From contig JYFJ02003725.1 of assembly GCA_000934665.2 (NCBI GenBank), forward strand, positions 1-38,367: a stretch of DNA of 38,367 nucleotides. The letters run 5' to 3'. Every line of letters begins with the position of its first letter. Position 1 is the first letter of the stretch. Positions 3,872 through 33,866 of this stretch are shown here, one piece after another. Made by a program: the position numbers and the translations under genes. Below the pieces are notes generated by a model that was given only the letters and a program-made list of their open reading frames with translations, was not told the DNA's origin and did not search any database. The stretch is from Catajapyx aquilonaris (taxonomy: Eukaryota).

Positions 3872-4514
3872 AGAAACAATAAGTGTTGCTTGGGTGAAAT
3901 TGTCCAAAGTGACCTATATTGCCTAAAGAACTTTTAATAATTCGTTAATATATTATTGATGTCATCTCACGATTTGTTGCTGTTAAATAGTCCTCTGGTG
4001 AACACTGAAAACATATCCAACAGTGGGAACCACTAACAGTAAGTAACGCGAGATGGTCAAGTCAGAAATCAGCTCTCCTGAAAATTACTTCTCTCTTGAG
4101 ATTGATCACTCTTGCTTCTCATCACCTCATTTACGAAATTGAGGCTGATAAGAGCCACCTGAAATTCAACCCCTCTATTGGAAAAACTGCGTGAGAGAGT
4201 TTCTTTGGCCTTCAGAACAATATTGATCATAAGGTCTATTAGCTTACCCATTTTCAGACAAATCCATCTGGCCCAACTTTTTTGTACAGACCCCCACCAC
4301 GTCCTTTGTCCCTTCTGACCTGGATCCAGCAGAGGTCATTGTGTCTCTCATTCCAACATTTCAATAGTTACAGTCAAATCTGTGATTGTACAATCTGTGC
4401 ATCAGTGAGACAACTTATTGAGCCATTACAATAAGGGGAAGTTTCCAAATGGCCAAAGAATCACAGTATCCACACTGGAAAATCGAAATTGATATTTTGT
4501 AATTCATGTTCCAG

Positions 4515-18107: not shown

Positions 18108-18284
18108 TAGGGACGGAAGGAAGCAGCTGTGGCCTATTAATTACGGAAGCAACTCCGGAATTTTCCTGGAAGGACCGTGGGAAACCACAGAAAACCACGG
18201 TCAGAGTTGCCGGCCCCGGGATTCGAACCCAGGACCTCCCGATTACAGTCGGACGCCTTATCCACTATGCCAACCTGCTTCGGT
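18108..18284 (-). mobile_element. tRNA-derived SINE (5' part)
   Basis: Minus strand TGGCATAGTGG...GGTTCGAATCCC followed by a non-tRNA body (GTGGTTTTCTGTGGTTTCCC...GGCCACAGCTGCTTCCTTCC). Confidence 0.8.
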
Positions 18285-21807: not shown

Positions 21808-24032
<2,225 letters not shown>

Positions 24033-26025: not shown

Positions 26026-26170
26026 GAGTAGCAGCAGCGATTGTTGAAATGGGAAGGGATAGCGCATAAGCCCGTCCTTTGCCTCTCTGGTGAGTGGCGA
26101 CAGGAACGCACCCTCATTTGCATAAATAAAAGAAAAAGAAAAGAAAAAAGAAAGATGGCCGCCTGATGAG
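26026..26170 (+). promoter_or_regulatory. Conserved upstream element of unit G
   Basis: ATTTGCAT at 26116-26123; AAGATGGCCGCC at 26152-26163. Candidate UTR intron gtaaga(26252)...ttgcag(26319). Confidence 0.7.
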
Positions 26171-26323
26171 CATCATTGTCGTTCCATTCTCTGGAAGAGT
26201 GGCCTTGACCTGAGTATCCCTCGGCCTACTCTGCCCACACAGTCTCCCAGAGGTAAGAGGAAGTGTCCCTTGATTTGTGTGGTACGACATGACCATGGAT
26301 GACCTCTTGTGTTTTGCAGGAAC

Positions 26324-26548
26324 ATGTCTTTCATCCTGAGGATAAAGAAGGAGGAGGAAGAGGACATCACAACAGAGGAGACCTGGCAGATTCCCTTGAA
26401 GGAGGAGACCCCGTCTTGCTTTGATGGGGGCTCTACTCTCATAGAAGACACACTCCGCGAGGTACAGCAGGAGGAGGAGATGGTGGTGGACATGTCCAAG
26501 GTGGTCGAAGATGAAGACGACCCTTTGGCAGAAGGTTCTGGAAGGACT
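26324..26548 (+). CDS. Unit G acidic exon (75 aa), no cognate finger exon
   Basis: ttttgcag|gaacATG; MSFILRIKKEEEEDITTEE...EDDPLAEGSGRT; donor gtaagc in phase 0. Confidence 0.8.
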
Positions 26549-26571
26549 GTAAGCCACCTGATGAAATTGCA

Positions 26572-26862
26572 CACTGACTACAACTCCAATGAAAGAACAT
26601 TGGCGCTTAACTCGGATGCGCATTTTTTCTTCCGAGAAGGCGTACTTGATGGGTTCAGATAATTGCATAACTTGTTGAATCCAGACTCGAAAGGCTGGTC
26701 CCAGCATTCCATAAGGCCCTGTGCATTTTTTTACTCCTGATGTAACGTACTCATTTTCATCAGACCATTTCTTGGCCCCTCGGTGGACAAATATGGTGCT
26801 TTGATTACTCAGCTTCCTTTCCCGTGGGCAGGAAGGCAGAGAATTACTGGAGAAGGGGGGCA
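26572..26862. repeat. Intronic block duplicated at ~31135-31450 (possibly decayed LINE RT tail, minus strand)
   Basis: CACTGACTACAACTCCAATGAAAG...GGCGTACTTGATGGGTTCAGA...TTTCTTGGCCCCTCGGTGGA is present twice. Minus-strand YGMLG...PIKYA is weakly RT-like. Confidence 0.7.
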
Positions 26863-27277
26863 TACTGACATGATGCAGTAGCTTGATAAAATTATACAGT
26901 AGAATCCGACCTCGAATTATCCTACTTTGCGGTTTATCCGACCGTCCCGCTGATTTCTCATCAAATACTGTAATGCAGGCCTACTAAGCTAGACCGGCGT
27001 ACCATATGCTGATACGCTGGCTTTAAACAATTCTGCTGGCGGAACTATAGCGTTTTCCCACTATGTAATGTGGTTTCTGGGTGGCTTTTAAAAATTTTCT
27101 CTCACGTAAAAATAAATCGCGAATTTTGGACTCCAAAATCTTGCTTGCAACTTGTCAACTGTGTCCTTTGCGGGTTTTTGCCGCCTCCCGAAACTCTTGA
27201 AAATTCCCTCAAAATGTCCACGGTCTGTAGAGTAGGTGAAAATGTCCATCTCACCAGTCTTTCTTTGTTGTGGTTAG

Positions 27278-27542
27278 CCACATGCCAGAAGGTCCAAGAG
27301 CCGGTCACATCGAACACCGCGTCCGAGGTTGACCGGCGAAGATGAGCCAACTCCTGGCTGTTCAACCTGGGAGGAACTGGAGGAGCCAAACTCATCAGGA
27401 GATGAAGAGGCAGGTGACGGCGCTCTGGCGAATTTGCTGCTAACATCAGCCACAATGCCCTTAGCCGGCCTGGAGCCCCATGAGATGGAGTCGCTCCTCT
27501 TTCAGGGCATGGAGGATGACGCGGAGGTGGATACTCCTACAG
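27278..27542 (+). CDS. Predicted upstream exon of piggyBac transposase (basic then acidic N-terminus)
   Basis: ctttctttgttgtggttag|CCA; open frame PHARRSKSRSHRTPRPRLTGEDEPT...DAEVDTPT. Donor ACAG|gtaagg (phase 1) joins ctccag|AC at 27752 in frame. Confidence 0.7.
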
Positions 27543-27751
27543 GTAAGGGCTCTTGTTCATATAATAATTGGTCCTTGCATGCATCATACACGTACAGTGT
27601 ACATTTCGCATAATGGCATGTGTTGCATAATTGGGGACATTCTTGGACTGGGTTGGGCCGCAGTTTCTAAAGAATAACTCAATGCATTCCAGTGCAATGC
27701 AAATACATTGCAGGCAAGATTTTGGAGTCCAAAATTTATTATTACCTCCAG

Positions 27752-29421
27752 ACATAGGGTTGCGGTCATCTGTTTCTCCAGGGCCATCTAGTGCTGGAGA
27801 TGCCAGCAGTGGACAGGTGGCTCCATCCACATTGGCTCCTCCAGGTGGCCGAGGACGGAAAAAAAGAAAAGCAGATGGTGCAGATGCTGGTGCAGATGAA
27901 GGGGGAGGGGGCCAAGGAGACTGGAGGTGGGAGGAATTTCCAGGGCCAGATGAGCGAAATGCTAATGCTAATTTGCCTTTTGCCGGCCCTCCTCCAGGCT
28001 CCTTGGCCACTGCGGAAGCAGAAGCAGCTTCCACTGTAAGTGATTTTTTCTTTCTATTGGTAACTGAGGACATTATTGATGAGATCATCAAGCAAACCAA
28101 TCAATATGCTCGGGAGACTGGAAAAAATGTACATTCTACAGGGAGAAAAACAATAAAGTGGGTGGATGTTGATCGAGCAGATCTCCTGGCATTTTTTGGT
28201 TTGCTTATTGCCATGGGCATAGACAGGCGCACTTCAGTGAAAGATTTCTGGTCAACGCATCCCGTTTTGCACATTGCGTTTTACTCTGGCTGCTTGTCAA
28301 GAGACAGATTTCTCCAAATATTGTATTCATTTCATCTCTGTGACAATCGGGAGGCTAAGCCAATACATGACCCCCATCACGACAAATTATTTAAGATTAG
28401 GCAGTTGCATGATCGCGTCAGAATGCAGGTTGGCAAGCATTTTCATCCCCACCAACAGCTCAGCATTGATGAGATAATGGTGGGGTCGAAATGTAGGCTT
28501 GCCTTCATACAGTACATTCCGAGTAAGCTGACTAAGTGGGGGGTCAAGCTGTTTGTGTTAACCGATGCTGCTACGGGATACATTTTAGATTTCAAAGTTG
28601 ATACCGGGAAAGAAGCCTATGTTTCCCCCTCAGGTCACGGCTTGGCTTATGATGTTGTCATGGATCTGATGAGAAATTACACTTGTAAGAAGTACCACTT
28701 GTATACAGATAATTTCTACACGTCTCCAACGTTGGCCAGGGATCTTGCTTCTCTTGGCATTTTCACCTGTGGAACTGTCCGCTCGAATAGAAAGGGCTTT
28801 CCTTCGGTGTTAAAAAGTGATGATTTGGGACCTGGAGAATCGCACTTCCAATTCTGTAGGGATGTCACCGCTGTGAAATGGCATGACAAGCGTGATGTTC
28901 ATGCGTTGTCTACGATCCATGGCAACTCTGTTGAACCAGTTAGAAGACGAGGGGAAGCAGAGCCTACTCCCAGGCCTGTTCTCATCACCGACTACAACAG
29001 GTACATGGGTGGTGTTGACCTGGCGGACCAGTATCTTTCATACTTCATGCTCAAATTGCAAAACAGGAAATGGTGGAAAATGCTAGCCTTCAGGCTACTT
29101 GACATCGCCGTGCTGAATTCGCTAGTCCTGTATCGGATTGGCAAAGGCTATCCCGAGTTTCCTCAGAAGAACTTTCGACTCGACCTCGTTTTGCAATTGA
29201 TTGAGCCATTGCGTATGAAGAGGGCTGGCCCACCAGTTCAGCCTCTTACTCTACCTGGGTCAACAGACGATGTTCGTCACATGCCCTCAATTATTAAGAA
29301 GAGGAGGAGATGCGTAGGTTGCTTTCCAAGGCATTGCCTTACGACCACTTTCTGCGGCACTTGCAAGCGGGCATGCTGTCTGAAGTCATATAAGGACTAC
29401 CATGATGGTAAATACATGTAA
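27752..29421 (+). CDS. piggyBac transposase (PGBD4-like, DDE_Tnp_1_7 family), main exon
   Basis: Motifs LSRDRFLQI, DKLFKIR, SIDEIMV, KWGVK, YTDNFYTS, CGTVRSNR, WHDKRDV, YNRYMGGVDLADQ, KWWK and a C-terminal Cys-rich domain. Uninterrupted ORF 27631-29421. Confidence 0.95.
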
Positions 29422-29533
29422 ATATTGTAAATAAATTTGTAAATATTGTAAATTGTAAATAATTCAGCTTTACTGTTCTGCCAATAGTTTTTTTTGGGGC
29501 AAAGGACTTGCTTAGCGGATTCCGTTGGGAGGG

Positions 29534-29690
29534 AGTAGCAGTGATTCACCAAGTAGCGGCGACTCTTGAATGGGAAGTGATAGCGCATAAGGCCGTCCTT
29601 CCACTCTCTGGTGTGTGGCGACAGGAACGCACCCTCTAGAAAAAAGAAGAAAAAAAGAAAAAAGAGAAATCGAACATGGCCGACTGAGCA
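29534..29690 (+). promoter_or_regulatory. Degenerate upstream element of unit H (octamer lost)
   Basis: Same block, but ACCCTCTAGAAAA replaces ACCCTCATTTGCAT and AACATGGCCGAC replaces AAGATGGCCGCC. Confidence 0.6.
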
Positions 29691-30168
29691 ATAGGCGTCG
29701 ACTCTCTCTCGAAGTGTGTGTACCCTTGTGTTTGCCAAGACCATGTCACAGCCAGTGTGGATAAAGAAGGAGGAGGAAGAGGAGGACATCACAACAGAGG
29801 AGACTTCTTGGATGCTGCGGTTGAAGGAGGAGGAGGAGGAGACACCTTCTGGCTTTGATGACGGTGGCTCTACTCTGCTCATGGAGATCATGATGAAGGA
29901 GGCAGCAGAGGAGGAGATGGTGGTGGGCATCCCTAGGGTGGTTGGAGATGAGGACGACCCTTTAGAAGCTGGTTCAGGAAGGAACAGTGGCGGGGTAAGC
30001 CACCTGATCAAAAGTGCATTATAATATGTTACGCTGAAGACATCATCAGTCCAAATCATCACTGCAAGATACGTCAGAGGGAGCTGTGCTCACGGGAGTG
30101 ATGGCTTCAAACATGTGACACATTAGCAAGACCTGCTGTTGTGGCCCCAATAAGGATGTAGAGATCCA

Positions 30169-30387
30169 GGGCCGAATTCAGAGAGGTTGCTTAACGTAAA
30201 CGCGACCGATTAAATCCTTTAGTCAGCCTCGATTAGCAAATTTAATCAACCTGCTAATACAAAGACGGCGATTAGCGCTAAACGCCCCCTAATCGCACTT
30301 GCTAGCACTTTTAAATTTGCTATTCGAGGATGACTAACGGATTTAATCGGGCGCGTTTACGTTAAACAACCTCTCTGAATTCGGCCC
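30169..30387. mobile_element. Palindromic MITE with apparent 3-bp TSD CCA
   Basis: GGGCCGAATTCAGAGAGGTTGCTTAACGTAAACGCG ... CGCGTTTACGTTAAACAACCTCTCTGAATTCGGCCC; CCA on both sides. Confidence 0.85.
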
Positions 30388-30514
30388 CCACTATTTAGCG
30401 AACTTAAGTAATCCCTGGTTGCTGGGACCTGATACGTCAAAAGTTCTTTGAAGTTATACGTAAAAAGGGAGCTTTTTGTCAATTTCTTATTTGTAATGAA
30501 AAAGTAGCCAAATA

Positions 30515-31072
30515 CAGTGCTGGACATATTAAGGCCATTTCACACACACAAAAAAACGCGCGGCAGACGGCGCGCATTGCGGCATATTTGTCGCGGGGCA
30601 TATTATTGCCAATAATTAATAATAATTGGCGGGGCAGGCGTTTGCTGCTTGACGCTGCTGCAAAATCTTTTTGTGTTTTGGCCTTTAGCCGTCGCTGAAT
30701 GTTTTTTTTCTGGCGGCGGCGGCGTTACCTGGCAACCCTGTCCGGCGGGCCAATTCAAACATCAGCCCATGGAGAGCGCTTCCATTGTTGCCACTGTTTA
30801 CAAATCGAGTGAGTGACCCCAAAATGACTTATTGCTTCTAACATCATTATTTTTCCCGTTTTCTCCTGCGTATCCCTGCAGATACTGTGTAAGCAGGCAG
30901 AAGAGACCCGTCGCTGGGTCGTCCGCGTCACTCACTCGATTTGTAAACAGTGGCAACAATGGAAGCGGTCTCCATGTGCCGATGTTTGAATTGGCCCGCC
31001 GGACGGGGTTGCCTGGTAACGCCGCCGCCGCCGGAAAAAAACATTCAGCGACGGCTAATATGTCCAGCACTG
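30515..31072. mobile_element. Tc1/mariner-type MITE with long TIRs and TA TSD
   Basis: TA|CAGTGCTGGACATATTA...TAATATGTCCAGCACTG|TA; arms ~145 bp; the left arm is interrupted by a nested MITE. Confidence 0.9.
30532..30684. mobile_element. Nested PIF/Harbinger-like MITE, TTA TSD
   Basis: TTA|AGGCCATTTCAC...GGCCT|TTA. The uninterrupted right arm of the host element shows the empty site. Confidence 0.85.
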
Positions 31073-32088
31073 TACAATTGCTGGGAAAGGAGAGCCAACA
31101 TGGTTAGCAAAGCACACAGCACAACATGTCAAAAACACTGACTACAACTCCAATGAAAGACCATCGGCGCTTAACTCGGATGCACATTTCCTTCCGAGAA
31201 GGCGTACTTGATGGGTTCAGAGAATTGCATGCCTGTAATACAGTTGAATCTGGTTGTAAGACGCGAAAGGCCGGTCCCAGCATTCCATAAGGCCTTGGGC
31301 ATTTTTACTCCTGGCGTAACATACCCATTTTCATCTCACATCAGCTTTAACAGACTATTTCTTGGCCCCTCGGTGGAAAATTATGGTGCTTTTGATTACT
31401 TAGCTTCCTTACCCACAGGCAAAAAGGCAGGGAATACTGGAGCAGGGGGTGATTTTTCCATCTGCCACCGATCTAACCTTTGCATTGCAAGGTTGAGGCA
31501 CACATGTGCTCTGTACAGAAAATTACGAATCACCCTGTGTAATTATTTCTGGGTGAGCTAATTTTGCATGTTTCATTCAATAGTGTGCAGTACGGGCATA
31601 ATATTGAAAGCAGAAAACTTTGCGTATTTATTGCAAAAGTGGTGATAGTGGTTATAACGGACTTATTCCCGCAGTCCCTTTTAGTCTATTATATCAGGAT
31701 CTGGGAAGGATTTTAATAATACCGATGAAAATTGATGTGATTTCACATTCCAGGTTGTGAAGGTGAGAACTGAAGGAGGAGGAGAGAATGGGATCCAGGA
31801 GGACAGGAGCAGTGGAATATGTGAGTGTAGACAATGCCCGAAATTATTTGGCACCCTGTATGATTTGAATTGAACATGATATGGTGGATGATATTGCTGC
31901 CGGATTTGCCAGAAAGAATTTTATGACGCACATCATAAGAAAACTCATATGTGAATTTTCACATGAGAGAAATCGTTCACTTGCGACGTCTGAAATAAAT
32001 ATTGGACAGTGAATTTCTGTGGAGTCTGGTAAAAATTGCTGCCACTACGTGTAACTGTTACTAACTTATCAAGTCAATAATATTAATA

Positions 32089-33866
32089 ATGAACCTGAGG
32101 GGCTACACAAACCCAGAGAGAGTATTAAAATTAATTACAAAAAAATGTAAGTACATAATTAAAAAGTGTTTATCATGGCTTACAGATGTTGAATTTCCGG
32201 CAAATTTTTGAATGAAGACATTTTGAAACCCATTTCAAATTAATTGAATTGAAATAATTGTTATCATAGCACACATTCCGGTGAGGTCTAAATATAGTCC
32301 AGGTCCCAAGCGGAAAAAAACAGGCCGAACTTTGCACTTTGTGATAAGAAGGCACAATTCCAGGTCCATCAGATACCCCTTGTACACCACGTGCTACAAT
32401 TTTTGTTTCCTGTATTTGCAGCTAGTCATCAAGAGCTCTCGGACATCGAAGAAGAACAAGATTTTGTTGACGAGCCACCAGCCAAGAAGGCGAAGGCTGC
32501 TAAAAGTGGCCGAAACAAGCCGGAGATTACTAAACAGATGATAGGGAGAAAGCCTGGTGATGATGATGAGGAGGAGGAGGAGGAGGATGAGGAGATGAGC
32601 GAGGACAACGAAGATCGTGGAACACTACTGAAGCGACTTCTGGAGAAGAAGAAGGAGCACCTTAAAATGTCCGCTGCAACTAATCTGATCCAAAGTGATA
32701 TTGCAAGAGAAGAACAAGAAGAATCTGAAGTGCCTGGTGATGAGCAGCAACAACCAACTGACGTCATGGAAATAACCATGGAACTAATCCAGGCCAAAAA
32801 AAAAATTAATCTATTGGAAAAAGAAAATGCCCAGTTAAGGCGCCAACTGGGTGTCATTCACCAAGGTTAGTTTTCATCAAATTTATGGTGCAACCCCTTC
32901 TAACATGTCCCTTTAATTTTATTACAGCTGCACGCAGTATTAATCTGTATGCGCAAGAAATAGCCGAGATTTCATCTGTACATGGAGAACTTGTAAGTTT
33001 TTGTGGATGCTGCATATGCAATAGAATTATTTCAATTGGAATTTATTGCAGGAAGTTGACACCGCAACTCCAAATTCGAAGCACCAGTACAGGCTACCAC
33101 CACCGCCTGCCTCACATCAACCACCTGCCCAACAACCAAATATGCCAAATATGTTGACGAACAAGGTTAGTCCTAGTAAGGTTGGTTTATTTATGATGAT
33201 GGAGACTATTTCCATTGATAAAGCAGACGAGGGGTGCATTCATCGTCTTTCTTTAACATTGGGTAGTAGCTAGTAAGTCGTAGTAGTAAATGTTGGTTCT
33301 TTGCTGAGCCACTAGCAACCAGTGCGTTATGGACTCTAATAATAATTATTTCCTCAATATTTCAGGTTGAGCTTCTGGATGGGTATGGCGTGTATGTGGA
33401 GGAGGCCCAAAGAAGTTCAATATTTCGGAAGGGGAAAGCGTCACCCGGCGATATGGTGCGGGAAGTTCTAAATGCCCTTCACTCTAAAGAAGAGTTAGGA
33501 GGCCTCACAGCCCTTGGCAGCCGGGGTAAACAACAACTGCCCAAAAGGGAATTAGAACTCATATGCAGTAAGTACCATGCTTTTGGGAGAAAGGATGATG
33601 CATTGTAGGATCGGGCTCTTGACGTGGTATTTTGGCGGGATATGCTGTATTCTGACCCTCGCCACTGAGCAGTCAACATTTTTTTTGACAAGTGCTTCAT
33701 TTCTTTCAACCTATTGATACAAAAATTCCTGTTTTTTTTTCCAGCGCTGGCTGAAGTATTGGGCCATACAGTTACATGGTCACAAATTATTGAGCATGTA
33801 AATAGACGGTGTGCCACTTGCAGGCGCTCGCTGCTACCTTCCCAGAAAGGTCATCCTGCGAGGTAG
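32089..33866 (+). CDS. Multi-exon acidic/coiled-coil/BEN-domain protein (~334 aa)
   Basis: Exons 32422-32865, 32928-32992, 33052-33165, 33366-33567 and 33745-33866 all have GT-AG junctions and join in frame; candidate first exon 32089-32146 is phase-compatible but less certain. C-terminus VELLDGYGVYV...MVREVLNALHSKEELGGLTALG..GKQQLPKRELELIC...IIEHVNRRCATCRR fits the BEN pattern (judged by eye). Confidence 0.8.

Follow-up and report, generated by a model that had tools for sequence, protein, structure and literature searches.

Unit G of the tandem zinc-finger gene array on Catajapyx aquilonaris contig JYFJ02003725.1 (NCBI GenBank assembly GCA_000934665.2; positions 1 to 38,367 of the forward strand, the whole stretch analysed here and called the window below) has no finger exon, and an open piggyBac transposase gene lies in its place. 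This locus (26,026 to 29,421) raises the question of whether the transposase has been captured by the host gene as the C-terminal part of a fusion protein, or whether it is a gene of its own whose frame happens to agree with the exon upstream. From the letters of the locus we lean, with modest confidence, to the second answer: it is probably a self-contained, immobilised piggyBac transposase gene, and its agreement in frame with unit G's acidic exon would be incidental. The fusion is a legitimate but less probable candidate and is weighed below together with two further explanations.

A transposase gene in the place of a finger exon

Zinc-finger genes stand in tandem in the window, all on the plus strand. 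In a unit of the array, a conserved upstream element is followed by a short non-coding exon, then by an acidic exon and finally by a single large exon of C2H2 fingers. The acidic exons begin with MS.ILRIKKEEE and end in phase 0, and the finger exons begin in phase 0 at an acceptor of the form ...TTCCAG/GT (a slash marks a splice junction throughout). Acidic exons start at 1647, 6861, 10375, 16824, 21808, 26324 (unit G) and 29743 (unit H), and finger open reading frames (ORFs) at 4503, 8466, 14098, 19599 and 24555; a survey of the finger ORFs of the window placed none between 26548 and the next unit. The upstream element of unit G retains the stretches ATTTGCAT and AAGATGGCCGCC, as do those of units A, B and D, and in the alignment both are gone from unit H. 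We take the two stretches to be octamer-like and YY1-like motifs. The inferred first splice acceptor of unit G, TTTTGCAG/GAAC, sits four bases 5' of the ATG and is conserved in the other units, and its acidic exon shares 63-72% identity with those of five further units. The preliminary description of this DNA had reported an intact upstream element, an intact phase-0 acidic exon (26324-26548), a missing finger exon and a same-strand transposase in the vacant slot; all of this is borne out, the last point by ORF coordinates and by a match to Pfam DDE_Tnp_1_7.

The transposase ORF comprises 596 codons from stop to stop (27631..29421) and matches Pfam PF13843 (DDE_Tnp_1_7) over profile positions 3-348 of 349, with a score of 282.5 bits (cut-off 22.4, E 7.4e-84). 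The Asp residues of SIDE, YTDNF and GGVDLAD, presumably the catalytic triad (DDD) of piggyBac, occupy positions 239, 319 and 422 in the translation of exon 3. Structures of piggyBat (9c0f, E 2.3e-55) and Trichoplusia ni piggyBac (6x67, E 9.1e-38) are matched in the PDB; by sequence the catalytic core agrees with theirs, and the Cys-rich tail does so in the modified form given below. The three Asp align with 268, 346 and 447 of chain 6x67 (positions counted from the alignment). A full DDD core with a Cys-rich tail had been described earlier, and for the core this stands. The tail is present in a modified form: of six columns that are Cys in at least 70% of 90 relatives it retains Cys in five, and the His conserved in the tail is there as well, but a column with Cys in 78 of the 90 has Ser, and the loop between its two CxxC pairs is about nine residues shorter than in the relatives shown. 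The Pfam scan did not report PF13842 for this tail.

Conservation was judged in an alignment of 90 of 211 eligible relatives of 450-800 amino acids (aa). The transposase agrees with 56 of the 63 columns whose conservation in this set is 85% or more (0.89), one of the seven misses being the start Met of the relatives; the same measure, taken for each relative by leave-one-out, has a median of 0.94, a 10th percentile of 0.86 and a minimum of 0.73, and the value found here is low-normal among relatives. An Asp stands in the Y.GK motif where 88 of 90 relatives have Tyr. In both large protein searches, one word-indexed over 5.8 billion proteins and one exhaustive over 1.84 billion cluster representatives, the closest proteins were 42-45% identical over most of the length and 50-51% identical on a 309-aa fragment, and the whole family counted 24,390 cluster representatives at E<=0.001.

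The ends of a transposon are missing. The best local alignment of 26850-27290 with the reverse complement of 29400-29560, which would reveal terminal inverted repeats (TIRs), scored 18, no better than the average of 200 shuffles (mean 18.0, standard deviation 2.3, maximum 28), in agreement with an earlier remark that clean TIRs are not visible. TTAA occurs on the left at 26607, 27023 and 27088, and on the right there is none in 29380-29750; the copy at 27088 is not callable as a target-site duplication because no TIR follows it and its right-hand partner is missing. Having neither TIRs nor a TTAA duplication, the locus is not a mobile element.

Copy number was taken from the contigs of three DNA runs of one sample, possibly the sample behind the window, and refers to one individual's genome. 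Of five runs listed for the stretch, four DNA runs of one sample contained 0.92-0.94 of 339 sampled words and the fifth, X5, next to none; no RNA run containing the stretch was listed. The piggyBac segment forms one unitig of ~2.5 kb (27050/27086-29557) with depths of 29.7, 21.5 and 35.9 in the three runs, and the unique unitigs on either side have depths of 17.7-45. Over 27204-29339, the summed depth of all sequence at least 85% alike equals that of the single unitig in seven of eight bins, the bin 28539-28805 being slightly higher. Since the unitig stands at flank depth and almost nothing else is at least 85% alike, the gene is single-copy in the sampled genome. The preliminary description had named as a refuting outcome that the copy is one among many near-identical polymorphic insertions; contig depth excludes this. 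Run X5 had no contig on 27204-29606, and its flank contigs were only ~90% alike, which makes it uninformative on presence or expression. The observed/expected ratio of CpG is 0.56 in the segment and 0.59 in the window, a weak indication compatible with long residence.

Within the segment, GC content rises from 0.405 (27088-27277) to 0.57-0.61 (27278-27542), falls to 0.402 (27543-27751) and rises again to 0.564 (27752-28038). These steps coincide with CAG/GTAAGG at 27542/3 and TTATTACCTCCAG/A at 27751/2, the frame runs on across the intervening intron, and the GC-rich stretch has no stop in its own frame against three and five in the other two. We therefore accept this stretch as exon 2, and the 209-nucleotide (nt) interval behind it as an intron, as real features of the transposase gene, on the combined grounds of the GC steps, the splice-site consensus, the continuing frame and the uniquely open frame of exon 2. 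A second acceptor at 27782 (TCTGTTTCTCCAG/GGCC), which ranks first by a crude pyrimidine-tract heuristic, was noticed 30 nt into exon 3; it is in frame with the exon-2 donor (checked by hand) and its use would drop 10 codons. Skipping of exon 2 (26548 to 27752) was considered and rejected, as the frame stops after 76 codons. In the predicted RNA fold of 27110-27750, two 29-nt inverted arms shut a long stem around exon 2 (minimum free energy -229 kcal/mol, z -5.1 against 20 shuffles). The 615-bp piece that these arms bound was tried as a miniature inverted-repeat transposable element (MITE) and rejected, being single-copy in the contigs and having no flanking duplication.

Four translation models can be drawn. 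Joining the acidic exon to exons 2 and 3 (26324-26548, 27278-27542, 27752-29421) gives 719 codons to the first stop (M1), as had been predicted for the splices 26548 to 27278 and 27542 to 27752. A start inside the element had also been suggested at 27214, which is the first ATG past 27088 (none lies in 27088-27213); its context, ctcaaaATGt, is confirmed, and a 46-nt GT..AG intron (27232-27277) would join it in frame to exons 2 and 3 for a protein of 650 aa (M2). A start at ATG 27455 in exon 2 would give 585 aa, a length corrected by hand (M3), and an unspliced start at ATG 27682 would give 579 aa (M4). The ATG at 27282 is out of frame with exon 2, as noted before.

Stand-alone gene or host fusion

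The reading that we prefer, an immobilised gene standing on its own, begins from the structure of the gene itself: it has a coding exon rich in GC, an intron of 209 nt whose splice sites follow the consensus, a large exon for the DDD core and Cys-rich tail, and an AATAAA. In its favour are also the full-length family match and the conserved columns, the missing ends, the single copy, the distance from all sampled relatives, the possible starts inside the element and, weakly, the CpG ratio; the dead unit H, which likewise has an open acidic exon, serves as a control. As to its history, we infer that insertion followed by one deletion is the most economical course. A piggyBac element would have inserted in sense orientation into the intron of unit G, and a later deletion would have run from the 3' part of the element to just 5' of the promoter of unit H. 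A single deletion of this extent would take the right end of the element, the finger exon of unit G and its 3' flank together, and would thus account jointly for the three losses. If expressed, the gene would produce a nuclear protein of ~585-650 aa with its start inside the element. Because its ends are missing, the transposase cannot mobilise its own gene; it could only work in trans or have been co-opted by the host. That its frame fits the acidic exon would result from the exon-trap layout described for piggyBac, with an acceptor shortly before the coding sequence, together with the phase-0 intron of the zinc-finger family.

Several observations weigh against this reading. The promoter motifs, 5' splice sites, ATG and donor of unit G are all intact, unlike the promoter of unit H, and the acceptor at 27278 ranks third of the 64 AGs in 26600-27800 by a crude pyrimidine-tract ranking. 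In addition, each of the starts inside the element has a flaw. If exon 2 starts at 27278, the ATG of M3 is preceded by out-of-frame ATGs at 27282, 27342 and 27402, an awkward leader; the 46-nt intron of M2 is shorter than the sole other small inferred intron (67 nt) and its donor, AGA/GTAGGT, is mediocre; and the ATG of M4 has a poor context, with T at -3, in AT-rich sequence that resembles an intron. These blemishes leave room for an upstream exon that supplies the start, as a fusion would propose.

Such a fusion would be transcribed from the promoter of unit G, be spliced from the acidic exon into the element (26548 to 27278, then 27542 to 27752) and yield a selected 719-aa product in which the transposase replaces the fingers. 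We regard it as doubtful, though a serious contender. Its open frame of 719 codons passes from phase 0 to phase 0, the same phase as that of the family's finger-exon acceptors, and the two parts have the same orientation. A polypyrimidine tract with a TAG acceptor lies 4 nt 5' of the out-of-frame ATG, and exon 2 is open for 59 codons (27278-27454) ahead of its first in-frame ATG at 27455, the other two frames being closed. The well-kept promoter motifs and splice sites of unit G, next to the degraded ones of H, and the flawed starts inside the element speak for the fusion as well, as do a single-copy, intact gene without ends, a polyadenylation signal right behind the ORF and the next unit within ~100 nt. 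By analogy, the same layout has been described for exon traps formed by piggyBac and for captured transposases of tetrapods (PMC5381638; bioRxiv 10.1101/2020.05.07.082677).

Against these points, the agreement in phase says less than it seems to. The acceptor AG (27276-27277) is part of the TAG stop that bounds the open frame, so phase 0 follows automatically and is no independent coincidence, and 59 open codons at 57% GC have, by a rough estimate, a chance probability of ~0.1. The proposed intron contains an AATAAA at 27111. The 29-nt inverted repeat would pair in transcripts that start 5' of 27122, for example from the promoter of unit G, and the paired right arm would then cover 15-43 nt 5' of the exon-3 acceptor, which is likely the branch-site region and where pairing might interfere with splicing. 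Selection on the acidic exon does not set unit G apart either: dN/dS against the other units is 0.23-0.52 for G and 0.21-0.34 for H, although H is dead. The acidic exon of H is still open over 84 codons despite a dead finger exon and lost promoter stretches, which means that an open acidic exon can persist without a working gene. No protein pairing the acidic module with a transposase was found among 120 relatives and 7999 profile candidates, and this negative is a weak one. In blastp against the N-termini of the 120 relatives, neither the acidic exon nor exon 2 had a match below E 0.67 (best for exon 2, E 0.69); a profile of six acidic exons searched against longer proteins gave 0 of 7999 candidates at E<=0.01, low-complexity words crowding that search; the acidic exon of unit G matched no Pfam family; and the best score of an acidic exon in the ESM Atlas, 0.84, lies under the level where matches carry meaning.

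A fuller version of the fusion can be outlined from the sequence, in which unit G would be a working gene that combines an acidic effector-type exon with a full-length piggyBac transposase retaining DDD, one deletion having removed fingers and right end, and a one-base change having perhaps shifted an ancestral start at ATG 27282 out of frame and so opened the joint frame, as in KRABINER. The last step is speculation, which the position of that ATG, one base out of frame, would fit; we hold this version as a whole to be unlikely. If true, the product could be a regulator or nuclease directed to piggyBac-type ends rather than to sites read by fingers.

The transposase might also be a silent relic: a fairly recent immobilised insertion that is still open by chance, neither expressed nor selected, in units G and H that are decaying at the edge of the array. 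With no clean ATG-initiated model among the four, with the Tyr to Asp and Cys to Ser replacements and shortened Cys-rich loop described above, and with the adjoining unit H clearly dead, decay is a natural thought, and low-copy cut-and-paste elements can be single-copy without domestication. However, the spliced frame runs for 650-719 codons without stop or frameshift, the splice sites of the internal intron are intact in their consensus, both ends are gone and no genomic copy at least 85% alike is left. We estimate that neutral decay sufficient to produce both odd residues should have brought stops and indels too, and we consider a relic quite improbable.

Least probable is that a transposase gene was resident 5' of unit H, that what landed in front of it as unit G was a partial duplicate of a G/H-type unit, comprising promoter, acidic exon and the first part of the intron, and that no finger exon was lost here: G and H do share an intron segment (26571-26859 and 31135-31449) whose homology ends abruptly at ~26860, and only ~90-100 nt separate the transposase stop from the element of H where the conserved 3' flank behind the fingers of other units measures ~670-1000 nt, but G and H are old duplicates, as their acidic-exon dS of ~0.9 indicates, the transposase is undated relative to both, and the proposal concerns origin only, fitting a stand-alone gene and a fusion alike.

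Comparison with known piggyBac-derived genes

By its sequence, the gene falls in the 'PGBD-like' class, which Bouallegue et al. (2017, PMC5381638) describe as transposases with one or no TIRs or untranslated regions (UTRs) that are not (yet) shown to be domesticated. It differs from that class in being full-length, open, intron-bearing and single-copy, and in these respects leans toward the domesticated 'PGBD' class. Domesticated PGBD genes are recognised by single copy, orthologous position across species and Ka/Ks (PMC5381638); single-copy status is found here, from unitig depth in three runs of one sample. An autonomous piggyBac-like element (PBLE) has two TIRs and TTAA on both sides, and the locus has neither pair; for want of TIRs it does not count as a PBLE. 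The same absence of TIRs and of a TTAA duplication separates it from active piggyBat and T. ni piggyBac.

The domesticated PGBD5 of chordates is likewise described as an intron-containing, single-copy, piggyBac-derived gene, with six or seven introns and deep orthology (PMC5381638; PMC3902484/PMC9499001). In contrast, one or two introns are inferred here, in the N-terminal part only, and identity to any sampled protein is at most 51%.

For the fusion, there are two kinds of precedent. CSB-PGBD3 of primates is a piggyBac 3' exon trap with a documented fusion transcript (PMC5381638; bioRxiv 10.1101/2020.05.07.082677). There as here, a sense piggyBac lies in a host intron, with an acceptor 5' of the transposase coding sequence and a polyadenylation signal behind it, and in-frame splicing to the entire transposase is possible; in CSB-PGBD3, however, the downstream exons of the host persist, whereas in unit G the finger exon is absent, the transposon ends are gone and the fusion is a candidate in silico. 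PGBD1 (SCAN, mammals) and the KRAB- and SCAN-transposase fusions of tetrapods resemble the arrangement in joining the N-terminal module of a zinc-finger gene to a transposase part instead of fingers. The KRAB- and SCAN-transposase fusions were born by splicing to a transposon-borne acceptor (bioRxiv 10.1101/2020.05.07.082677; PMC5381638), and in KRABINER a single-nucleotide deletion made the frame continuous (Cosby et al., bioRxiv 10.1101/2020.05.07.082677). A sense insertion in a host gene, an acceptor 5' of the transposase coding sequence and a continuous frame, the marks of fusions of this type, are all seen in silico in unit G. PGBD1 no longer has the Cys-rich domain or the whole catalytic motif (PMC5381638), whereas the three Asp and most of the tail are kept here. 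A further difference from PGBD1 and the KRAB fusions is that the acidic module has no Pfam counterpart and the fusion itself is a candidate.

If the fusion were true, a complete and apparently catalysis-competent transposase would have replaced the DNA-binding array of a tandem zinc-finger gene, born by insertion and one deletion in a lineage-specific family with an acidic module that is neither KRAB nor SCAN. This would extend the exon-shuffling route known from tetrapods and would provide a system for studying an effector-transposase chimera. If the two are not fused, the locus is still a single-copy, end-less, open piggyBac gene without a close relative and a routine candidate for domestication.

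Features of the locus, neighbouring unit and repeats

Table 1. Features of unit G, the transposase gene and the adjoining sequence (window coordinates)
Feature	Position	Strand	Basis or remarks
Conserved upstream (promoter) element of unit G	26030..26173	+	BLAST, 78-87% identity to elements at 1248, 6636, 16588, 29552
5' UTR intron of unit G, inferred, 67 nt	26253..26319	+	donor GAG/GTAAGA, acceptor TTTTGCAG/GAAC
Acidic exon of unit G	26324..26548	+	75 codons, ATG 26324, phase 0, donor ACT/GTAAGC
Intron segment common to G and H, middle-repetitive element	26571..26859	+	80% identical to H 31135-31449
High-copy repeat(s) adjoining piggyBac segment	26860..27087	+	bin 26937-27203 depth 2084-3693
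TTAA at repeat/unique boundary	27088..27091	.	no TIR after it, no right-hand partner
Inverted repeat, left arm, 29 nt	27122..27150	+	97% complementary to right arm
Candidate own first coding mini-exon	27214..27231	+	ATG in ctcaaaATGt, donor AGA/GTAGGT; in silico
Exon 2, GC-rich, basic and acidic coding stretch	27278..27542	+	open frame, GC, donor CAG/GTAAGG
Intron within transposase gene, inferred, 209 nt	27543..27751	+	consensus donor, acceptor TTATTATTACCTCCAG/A, GC drop
Inverted repeat, right arm, 29 nt	27708..27736	+	15 nt 5' of exon-3 acceptor
Exon 3: linker with basic cluster RGRKKRK, transposase core, Cys-rich tail, stop codon	27752..29421	+	ORF, Pfam and PDB matches
DDE_Tnp_1_7 domain with three catalytic Asp	28039..29121	+	Pfam; residues 137-497 of 596-codon frame
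Cys-rich C-terminal domain, shortened, one conserved Cys to Ser	29311..29403	+	alignment with 90 relatives
Polyadenylation-type signal AATAAA	29430..29435	+	9 nt past stop codon
Start of unit H (upstream element)	29513..29690	+	~90-100 nt past transposase stop; BLAST and alignment

The features are collected in Table 1. Unit H (29513-32023) is dead: its finger exon begins normally (VVKVRTEGGGENGIQ...) and then has six stops in 90 positions. The intron segment that it shares with unit G is absent from the other units, apart from unit D, which matches H's copy over 68 nt, and has a summed contig depth of ~920-1630, against ~20-36 for single-copy sequence. The finger exon of H begins ~290 nt beyond the point at which the G/H homology breaks off. 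The repeat or repeats that follow in unit G (26860-27090) have no second copy in the window and stop exactly at the TTAA at 27088, from which the unique piggyBac segment runs on; variant letters at 27028, 27042 and 27090 occur in 11-47 contigs. A search of the intron repeats for a tRNA or short interspersed element (SINE) head gave none near the locus.

DNA contigs were also seen that join 26823 to 31488 (two contigs per run, summed depth 33-52) and skip 4664 bases including the piggyBac gene and the 5' part of unit H. The shorter side of this joint is merely 40 letters long, and it could stem from a paralogous unit at another place or from an allele that lacks the segment.

Elsewhere in the array, a finger exon has best protein matches that are 52-54% identical and scattered across fishes, insects, molluscs and mammals. 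The acidic exon of unit E (21808-22050) has a stop after ...EDEDEDLSV, where other units go on with DPLAGGSGRTSG; its acidic tail is seemingly shifted to another frame, and unit E may be damaged or use another donor. ARAGORN reported a tRNA-like fold at 18208-18278 on the minus strand with an odd two-base anticodon, which may be a SINE head or chance. Beyond the array, open frames in 32298-33608 encode a very acidic, Lys/Glu-rich protein of 190 aa that looks like a coiled coil and a second frame of 112 aa, neither of them with a Pfam match. Finally, the intron of unit H carries two palindromic MITE-like elements, one at 30169-30387 (82% self-complementary) and one formed by 30685-30817 with 30927-31058 (94.7%), whose summed contig depth of ~9,900-47,800, against ~20-36 for single-copy sequence, places them among the most abundant repeats of the genome.

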